This document shows, piece by piece, positions 1 through 565 of a stretch of DNA of 565 bases. Made by a program: the position numbers and the translations under genes. Numbering within the stretch: the first letter of the stretch is position 1; each line of letters begins with the position of its first letter. The DNA is from a phage, in the sequence record EF517096.1; one strand, 5' to 3'. A model generated the notes under the pieces. That model was not told where the DNA came from, made no database searches, and was given only the letters and a program-made list of their open reading frames with translations.

Positions 1-441
1 GTTTCGGCTGCTGACCGTGTGTTCTACTGTGACCCAGATAGCTACTCTGCGATTCTGGCAGCACTGATGCCGAACGCAGCAAACTACGCTGCTCTGATTG
101 ACCCTGAGAAGGGTTCTATCCGCAACGTTATGGGCTTTGAGGTTGTAGAAGTTCCACACCTCACCGCTGGTGGTGCTGGTACCGCTCGTGAGGGCACTAC
201 TGGTCAGAAGCACGTCTTCCCTGCCAATAAAGGTGAGGGTAATGTCAAGGTTGCTAAGGACAACGTTATCGGCCTGTTCATGCACCGCTCTGCGGTAGGT
301 ACTGTTAAGCTGCGTGACTTGGCTCTGGAGCGCGCTCGCCGTGCTAACTTCCAAGCGGACCAGATTATCGCTAAGTACGCAATGGGCCATGGTGGTCTTC
401 GCCCAGAAGCTGCTGGTGCAGTGGTTTTCAAAGTGGAGTAA
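1..441 (+). CDS. 10A: Major capsid protein 10A, C-terminal part (5'-partial: 146 codons plus TAA stop at 439-441); T7-type HK97-fold capsid protein
   Basis: Frame +1 is open from base 1 with no stop until TAA at 439-441. The ORF track reports 19..441 only because it starts at the first GTG; the preceding in-frame codons (VSAADR) are uninterrupted, so the gene begins upstream of the window. The translation ...FMHRSAVGTVKLRDLALERARRANFQADQIIAKYAMGHGGLRPEAAGAVVFKVE* matches my recollection of the T7 gp10A C-terminus. Codon usage is strongly biased (GGT, GCT, CGT, CTG, GTT, AAC, TTC), typical of a very highly expressed gene. Confidence 0.94.
   Translation, partial: VSAADRVFYCDPDSYSAILAALMPNAANYAALIDPEKGSIRNVMGFEVVEVPHLTAGGAGTAREGTTGQKHVFPANKGEGNVKVAKDNVIGLFMHRSAVGTVKLRDLALERARRANFQADQIIAKYAMGHGGLRPEAAGAVVFKVE
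423..429 (+). other. Programmed -1 ribosomal frameshift slip site (G GUU UUC) for 10A to 10B
   Basis: The heptamer GGTTTTC at 423-429 holds 0-frame codons GUU (Val, 424-426) and UUC (Phe, 427-429). A -1 slip re-pairs tRNA-Phe on UUU (426-428), and the next codon becomes CAA (429-431, Gln), reproducing the 10B junction ...VVF|QSG.... The site lies 3 codons before the 10A stop. The exact slipping mechanism (single or tandem tRNA) cannot be determined from sequence. Confidence 0.65.
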
Positions 442-565
442 TGCTGGGGGTGGCCTCAACGGTCGCTGCTAGTCCCGAAGAGGCGAGTATTACTTCAACA
501 GAAGAAACCTTAACGCCAGCACAGAAGGCCACACGCACCCGTGCTGCTAACAAAGCCCGAAAGGA
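429..565 (+). CDS. 10B: -1 frame C-terminal extension of the capsid protein, giving minor capsid protein 10B by programmed frameshift (3'-partial; 45 codons in window)
   Basis: The -1 frame relative to 10A is open from 375 (after TAA at 372-374) to the window end. From codon 429-431 it reads QSGVMLGVASTVAASPEEASITSTEETLTPAQKATRTRAANKARK, which matches the known 10B tail (...VVF-QSGVMLGV...). There is no ATG or GTG with a proper ribosome-binding site at the start of this open frame, so it is reached by frameshifting from 10A rather than independent initiation. The final 23 nt match the pET T7-terminator fragment, which begins inside the end of the 10B reading frame. Confidence 0.8.

Follow-up and report, generated by a model that had tools for sequence, protein, structure and literature searches.

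The DNA analysed here, which we call the window throughout, is a stretch of 565 nucleotides from a phage (sequence record EF517096.1) that carries the 3’ part of a capsid gene and, overlapping with its end, an open -1 frame. In a megablast search of 50,697 phage records we obtained 260 matching records, the best matches being to Escherichia phage T7 with 98.8-98.9% identity over all 565 bases. The T7 counterpart of the window is V01146 23564-24128, the 3’ end of gene 10. At this position V01146 is annotated with “gene 10A, major capsid protein” and with a CDS joined from two pieces, “gene 10B, minor capsid protein”, and downstream of 10B the terminator T-phi and gene 11 follow. Joined gene 10 CDSs are also annotated in phiA1122, T3 and phiIBB-PF7A.

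The same picture was obtained at the protein level. The frame-1 product matches the Pfam family Gp10A-like (PF21703, E 4e-53) as well as the T7 major capsid protein 10A in the PDB (chain 2xvr_A residues 200-343, E 2e-90). For comparison with the minor capsid protein, the T7 gp10B sequence (398 aa) was rebuilt from the T7 locus by a one-base re-read. The conceptual fusion protein of the window, in which base 429 is re-read, shares 184 of 188 positions with T7 gp10B residues 200-387; considering only the gp10B tail residues visible in the window, 42 of 45 are identical to T7. A previous reading, made from the letters alone and without database searches (in the following the sequence-only reading), had expected the window to align to T7 and the fusion protein to match T7 gp10B, and both alignments turned out as expected. 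The window is the T7 10A/10B system itself, in a T7 variant, rather than merely a T7-like one. The features of the locus are summarized in Table 1.

Table 1. Features of the 565-nt window. Positions refer to the first letter of the window as position 1.
Feature	Position	Strand	Remarks
3’ part of capsid gene 10A	1..441	+	frame 1; residues 200-345 of the 345-aa protein; stop TAA 439-441
-1 frame open upstream of the slip site	375..428	+	undecoded in that frame; bounded upstream by TAA 372-374
Slip site G_GUU_UUC	423..429	+	P-site Val GUU and A-site Phe UUC would re-pair as GGU_UUU
10B-specific coding sequence, -1 frame	429..565	+	CAA 429-431 = Gln, followed by SGVMLGV...; truncated at the window edge
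Predicted branched RNA hairpin, candidate proximal stimulator	435..496	+	prediction only; spacer of 5 nt to the slip site
-1-frame ATG that overlaps the 10A stop (TAATG)	441..443	+	internal Met of 10B; GGAG at 435-438
Base differences V01146 to window	4 C>T, 156 G>A, 390 C>T, 489 G>A, 525 G>A, 531 G>A, 542 C>T		

All seven base differences between the T7 reference and the window are G:C to A:T transitions in the direction from reference to window. They lead to the protein changes P201S in the part shared by 10A and 10B, and V363I, E375K and A377T in the tail. T7_AGU and each of the 11 other Teseptimavirus relatives also have A at position 525, and K375 is likewise found in T7_AGU and all relatives examined, so the G of the reference represents the unusual state here. 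Only 4T, 531A and 542T are unique to the window. Four of the differences, three of them non-synonymous, fall into the 124 nt that belong to the 10B tail only (442-565), and three, one of them non-synonymous, into the part belonging to 10A only (1-422). This hints weakly at a greater tolerance of change in the 10B tail than in the capsid body (Fisher p=0.05). The one-sided spectrum resembles that of a mutagenised or heat-stressed laboratory T7 lineage; PMC8923235 mentions both the MNNG work of Springman 2010 and G-C to A-T changes induced by heat. A search of IMG/VR gave no exact match to the window variant between 520 and 545.

Slip site and overlapping reading frames at the end of gene 10A

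The frame-1 ORF ends with ...RPEAAGAVVFKVE directly before the TAA stop codon. The -1 frame, corresponding to frame 3 of the window, contains 15 stops between positions 12 and 372, i.e. within its first 124 codons (1-374). Downstream of the last of these the frame remains open up to the window edge, with 0 stops in 63 codons (375-565). From the density of 15 stops in 124 codons we calculated a chance of about 3e-4 for 63 stop-free codons. The upstream part of this open stretch, preceding the slip site, is between 31 and 91 nt long among relatives and, because its length varies, is not itself conserved.

Within the overlap of the two frames GGTTTTC occurs a single time in the window, in the phase G_GUU_UUC with the frame-1 codons GUU (424-426) and UUC (427-429). 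The motif alone is not rare: 0.08 copies are expected per window, and 15 of 200 shuffled sequences contained at least one copy. It is therefore the phase and the place of the motif, 10 nt before the stop and inside the two-frame overlap, that are notable. The -1 frame reads ...GFQSGVMLGVASTVAASPEEASITSTEETLTPAQKATRTRAANKARK, and re-reading of base 429 results in the fusion junction ...AAGAVVF-QSGVMLGVASTVAASPEEASITSTEETLTPAQKATRTRAANKARK. The sequence-only reading had placed the end of the 10A frame, the open -1 frame and GGUUUUC just before the 10A stop at these same positions and had proposed a VVF-QSG junction peptide; in all of this we arrive at the same result.

Compared with the canonical X_XXY_YYZ form, the heptamer has G_GU in place of three identical bases at X_XX, and because re-pairing in the P site from GUU to GGU involves a mismatch it is not a canonical slip site. 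A scan of the window and the T7 locus against Rfam (E<=1) yielded no family over the site. Other phase-correct N_NNY_YYZ sites in the overlap were considered as well (A_AUG_GGC at 381, U_CGC_CCA at 399) and rejected, their P-site re-pairing being poor.

Coding constraint and conservation of site and extension

In T7 the 10B frame runs 34 nt past the window end to a TAA stop (equivalent of 597-599), so that the window lacks the stop and the final 11 codons. We aligned the window with 13 Teseptimavirus loci and analysed the distribution of variable positions. Before the slip site, 77 of 120 variable columns are located at third positions of the 0 frame. After the 10A stop 27 of 49 variable columns are located at third positions of the -1 frame (binomial p=0.0014), and in the 14 aligned sequences the extension has indels only in multiples of 3. 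This switch of the third position together with the indels in threes indicates that the extension is under protein-coding constraint in the -1 frame.

To what extent the site and the extension occur together was assessed in 23 loci from related phages, 13 of them from Teseptimavirus, with T7 itself accounting for two. GTTTTC is present in the right phase in 13 of 13 Teseptimavirus loci and in addition in Berlinvirus (Yepe2, RN5i1), Przondovirus (K30) and Kayfunavirus (EcoDS1, LM33_P1). In all four genera G/C_GUU_UUC co-occurs with a -1 extension of 30-88 codons. A tail motif, LTPxQKAA(R/I)TRA(A/R)N(K/R), is common to all GTTTTC loci with the exception of LM33_P1. The Pseudomonas phage gh-1 carries GGTCTTC at the homologous place, followed by 7 open codons only and no extension, and in the Vibrio phage JSF18 neither slip site nor extension was found at the gene 10 locus. 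On the basis of these sequences we favour the view that the extension would be decoded in the -1 frame as a continuation of 10A and not as a separate gene.

In the Teseptimavirus loci the heptamer begins with G except in Ebrios and PZL-Ah1, where a C takes its place (AUC_GUU_UUC); the tail of these two phages is nevertheless fully conserved. Because of this C the P-site tRNA could hardly re-pair after a slip in these two phages. This suggests that slippage of U_UUC in the A site may be the essential conserved core of the event, or that Ebrios and PZL-Ah1 may shift less often.

Three of the loci showed peculiarities of their own. In LM33_P1 (887-1225) G_GUU_UUC is followed by an 88-codon -1 extension that has neither similarity to the T7 tail nor a Pfam domain, and whose distal part is entered as a hypothetical protein of its own (1019-1225); this extension may represent a third type of frameshift-added capsid decoration. 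For the Enterobacteria phage AH67C600_Q5 (MZ833439.1, 371-1159) only 192 nt of gene 10A are annotated. Its -1 (10B) frame continues stop-free from the tail (…AARTRF…) into gene 11, and the end of 10B and T-phi are missing, which is either a real deletion and fusion or a misassembly. The RefSeq entry of the Yersinia phage YpsP-G (1-562) gives gene 10A as two CDSs, 1-419 and 401-562, that overlap; probably this goes back to an indel from sequencing, or else to a pseudo-frameshift that has nothing to do with the programmed site.

The extension of the window matches phrog_12582, “head protein”, with an E-value of 6e-22. A Pfam search detected no domain in the tail of the window or in that of T7, and among solved PDB chains none covers the 10B tail. 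According to the literature 10B accounts for about 5-10% of the virion and ends in an unstructured C-terminal extension on the surface, of which display vectors make use (PMC8923235). Separately from this, we noticed a weak PDB match of the tail (fusion protein 158-187, ...TLTPAQKATRTRAANKARK) to residues 22-51 of 8rcx_A, “HTH-type transcriptional regulator VirS” (E 5e-6). This may be a low-complexity similarity of Ala/Arg/Lys-rich sequence or may go back to vector-derived sequence.

The ATG at the 10A stop and other explanations of the open frame

The ATG overlapping the 10A stop, together with the GGAG preceding it, would allow the extension to be read as a separate small gene, with re-initiation or new initiation at AUG 441-443 giving rise to a free peptide of about 52 aa. 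The sequence-only reading had stated that the open -1 frame contains no start codon with a properly spaced Shine-Dalgarno sequence. Taken literally this is correct, the spacing between GGAG and ATG in the window being 2 nt only, but the statement passes over the ATG itself. The ATG is kept in 13 of 13 Teseptimavirus loci, and in 10 of them (Pila, Bas103, C5, 3A_8767, YpsP-G, PVN09, Ebrios, PZL-Ah1, pO111 and HZP2) a separate CDS starting from the ATG of TAATG is annotated, to which Pila adds an RBS feature. The names given to these stand-alone tail CDSs are “minor capsid protein”, “head protein” and “hypothetical protein”. Likewise, PHROG 12582 is a profile of 52 positions that begins at the Met at 441.

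However, neither the ribosome binding site nor the start codon follows the extension through the phages compared. GGAG is lost and the extension kept in phiA1122, Bas103, Ebrios and pO111. Yepe2, RN5i1, K30, EcoDS1 and LM33_P1 have no ATG at the 10A stop, yet they possess the slip site and a -1 extension, and the shared tail motif is found in the ATG-less loci of Yepe2, RN5i1, K30 and EcoDS1. In gh-1 slip site and extension are lost together. An own start with a usable RBS is thus not conserved wherever the ORF is conserved. Moreover, full-length 10B is described in virions at a ratio of about 1:9 (PMC1635266, PMC8923235, PMC4177731). The annotated separate CDSs are pipeline calls and not experiments.

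Because of the Shine-Dalgarno spacing, the losses of GGAG and the genera lacking the ATG, a separate start cannot be the general way of expressing the tail, whereas the slip site can. We consider it very improbable that the tail is a separate gene. A small amount of free 52-aa tail peptide, made from TAATG in addition to 10B, is a possibility. It is because of the ATG in TAATG that many GenBank records annotate a stand-alone small gene; this annotation looks like a propagated artefact, and PHROG 12582 is built on such entries.

A shift at the RNA level has about the same low probability. Here T7 RNA polymerase would stutter on the T run at 425-428 and insert an extra U, after which normal reading would enter the -1 frame. 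The conserved core of the site is indeed this T run (GTTTTC), and comparative data alone do not separate an RNA-level from a ribosome-level event. Yet the run consists of four T only, and polymerase slippage needs longer homopolymers. In relatives the corresponding sites (C_CCA_AAG in T3, C_GAA_AAG in phiIBB-PF7A) look like sites of tRNA re-pairing and not like homopolymer runs, and the T7 site is classed as a ribosomal heptanucleotide shifting by bacterial ribosomes (PMC5009743). Transcriptional slippage on four T’s is hence an unlikely source of the shift, and we retain ribosomal frameshifting as the preferred reading.

Finally, a chance or relic ORF without product might be considered, as the tail lacks a Pfam domain and is replaced in T7 display vectors, and as the sequence specific for 10B holds four of the seven differences from the T7 reference (124 nt, Fisher p=0.05). 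This reading is contradicted by the comparative tests and can be regarded as excluded, given the low chance of the open stretch (~3e-4), the -1-frame third-position variation (p=0.0014) with indels in threes, the tail motif conserved across four genera and the virion data on 10B in the literature (PMC8923235, PMC4177731).

Frameshifting mechanism, stimulators and comparison with known systems

We are almost certain that the feature is the programmed -1 ribosomal frameshift of T7 gene 10. This frameshift is not new. It has been known since 1991 and was reportedly described by Condron, Atkins and Gesteland 1991 (Condron et al., two papers) and by Sipley et al. 1991. The sequence-only reading had assigned the feature to this documented system and had called it well established. 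The joined 10B CDS of V01146, the fusion match and the comparative tests agree with the assignment, no sequence feature speaks against it, and the case is a textbook one.

In the proposed mechanism most ribosomes would read GUU UUC AAA GUG GAG and release the 345-aa major capsid protein 10A upon termination at UAA 439-441. A smaller share of ribosomes would move one base back on G_GUU_UUC. In doing so tRNA-Phe would re-pair from UUC to UUU and tRNA-Val, imperfectly, from GUU to GGU, as is general knowledge for tandem slippage on X_XXY_YYZ. After the slip translation would continue with CAA AGU GGA GUA AUG... in the -1 frame, so that a 53-residue tail would replace the last three residues and a 398-aa minor capsid protein 10B of about 41 kDa would result. 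This protein would then be built into the capsid with the tail on its surface. The slip site and its phase, the open -1 frame, the coding constraint and the co-occurrence of site and extension are observations made here on the window and its relatives.

For the ribosomal nature of the event, its rate of about 10% and the need for sequence 3’ of the stop we rely on the literature. The T7 gene 10 site is described there as a heptanucleotide of the X_XXY_YYZ form with X_XX = G_GU (G_GU U_UUC), shifted by bacterial ribosomes, and is listed as an intermediate type (PMC5009743). 10B is made in about 10% of translations (PMC1635266) and the 10A:10B ratio is given as 9:1 (PMC4177731), both in keeping with the rate of roughly 10% that the sequence-only reading had put forward.

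With regard to stimulatory elements, a branched RNA hairpin is predicted shortly downstream of the slip site. The 62 nt from 435 to 496 fold with a dG of -24.4 kcal/mol (z -2.46), and 3 of 200 shuffled sequences were as stable. In the predicted fold 435-445 pairs with 486-496 and, further in, 448-454 with 460-466. RNAalifold returned the same fold in 13 sequences with 96.8% of cells paired. In these 13 sequences RNAalifold showed neither a compensatory double change nor an excess over shuffles, and the changes within the hairpin are all one-sided exchanges between G-U, A-U and G-C. The 136-nt context from 430 to 565 is not unusually stable (z -0.15). Because there is no covariation, shuffles do as well, the 136-nt context is ordinary and there is no Rfam match, the hairpin is listed as a candidate only. 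That this structure, which spans the 10A stop and TAATG, is a real proximal stimulator acting together with the distal CCCC of T-phi appears rather doubtful. If it were, the G489A exchange in the window, which changes a U.G pair of the stem to U-A, would slightly raise frameshifting.

When gene 10 was kept only up to GGTTTTCAAAGTGGAGTAA and then followed by EYFP, the shift took place in less than 1% of translations (PMC1635266). This result is compatible with the hairpin and the distal element to an equal degree; if the hairpin were a stimulator, the fall from about 10% to <1% upon replacement by EYFP would partly be due to its loss. A distal element is reported to take part as well, namely a CCCC that lies >200 nt 3’ of the site in the transcription terminator and whose long-range effect is described as unexplained (PMC5009743). 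Since T-phi lies >200 nt downstream, this key CCCC is outside the window. T-phi is present and nearly invariant in 12 of 12 Teseptimavirus loci aligned.

Several further candidates for a stimulator were examined and rejected. When RNAduplex was applied to 12 phages to find, close to the slip site, a sequence pairing with the 5’ arm of T-phi, it returned sites that are inconsistent between phages, and the pairing energies were no better than those of dinucleotide shuffles (fractions 0.35, 0.14 and 0.22). A G run within 30 nt after the site was found in 8 of the 12 phages and is absent from phiA1122, C5, YpsP-G and pO111. The SD-like GGUG at 415-418 upstream of the site ends 4 nt before it, which we judge too close for an arrangement of the dnaX type; the motif is explained by Ala-Gly-Ala codons.

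We compared the window with known cases of frameshifting. With T7 gene 10 it shares the locus, the G_GUU_UUC site, the stop and the -1 extension; it differs from V01146 by the seven base exchanges and in that it ends 34 nt before the 10B stop and lacks the T-phi element. The homologous capsid genes of T3 and phiIBB-PF7A likewise have a -1 shift a few codons ahead of their end, and its product is a minor capsid protein with an extended C-terminus. The slip sites are different, however, being C_CCA_AAG in T3 and C_GAA_AAG in phiIBB-PF7A in comparison to G_GUU_UUC in the window. The extensions of T3 and phiIBB-PF7A are Big_2 Ig-like domains (PF02368, E 4e-10 and 5e-23, respectively), whereas the T7-type tail has no domain match. 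This agrees with the literature, where the T7 extension, unlike that of T3, is not Ig-like (PMC5009743).

Outside of phages, dnaX of E. coli (A_AAA_AAG) resembles the window in that tandem slippage of bacterial ribosomes into the -1 frame lets a single gene give two products. In dnaX a canonical heptamer is combined with a defined SD stimulator and a proven hairpin, and shifting reaches about 50% (PMC1635266). The window in contrast has an imperfect heptamer, no suitably placed upstream SD was seen in it, and the documented stimulator is the distal terminator sequence. The downstream structure of dnaX starts about 5-6 nt after the site, while that of the window is only predicted.

The locus serves as a positive control, a real recoding site having been found from the raw sequence alone. 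It also exposes an annotation problem, the 10B tail being presented as a gene of its own in 10 of the 13 Teseptimavirus loci and in a PHROG family. The T7 10A/10B frameshift is the basis of T7 phage display.
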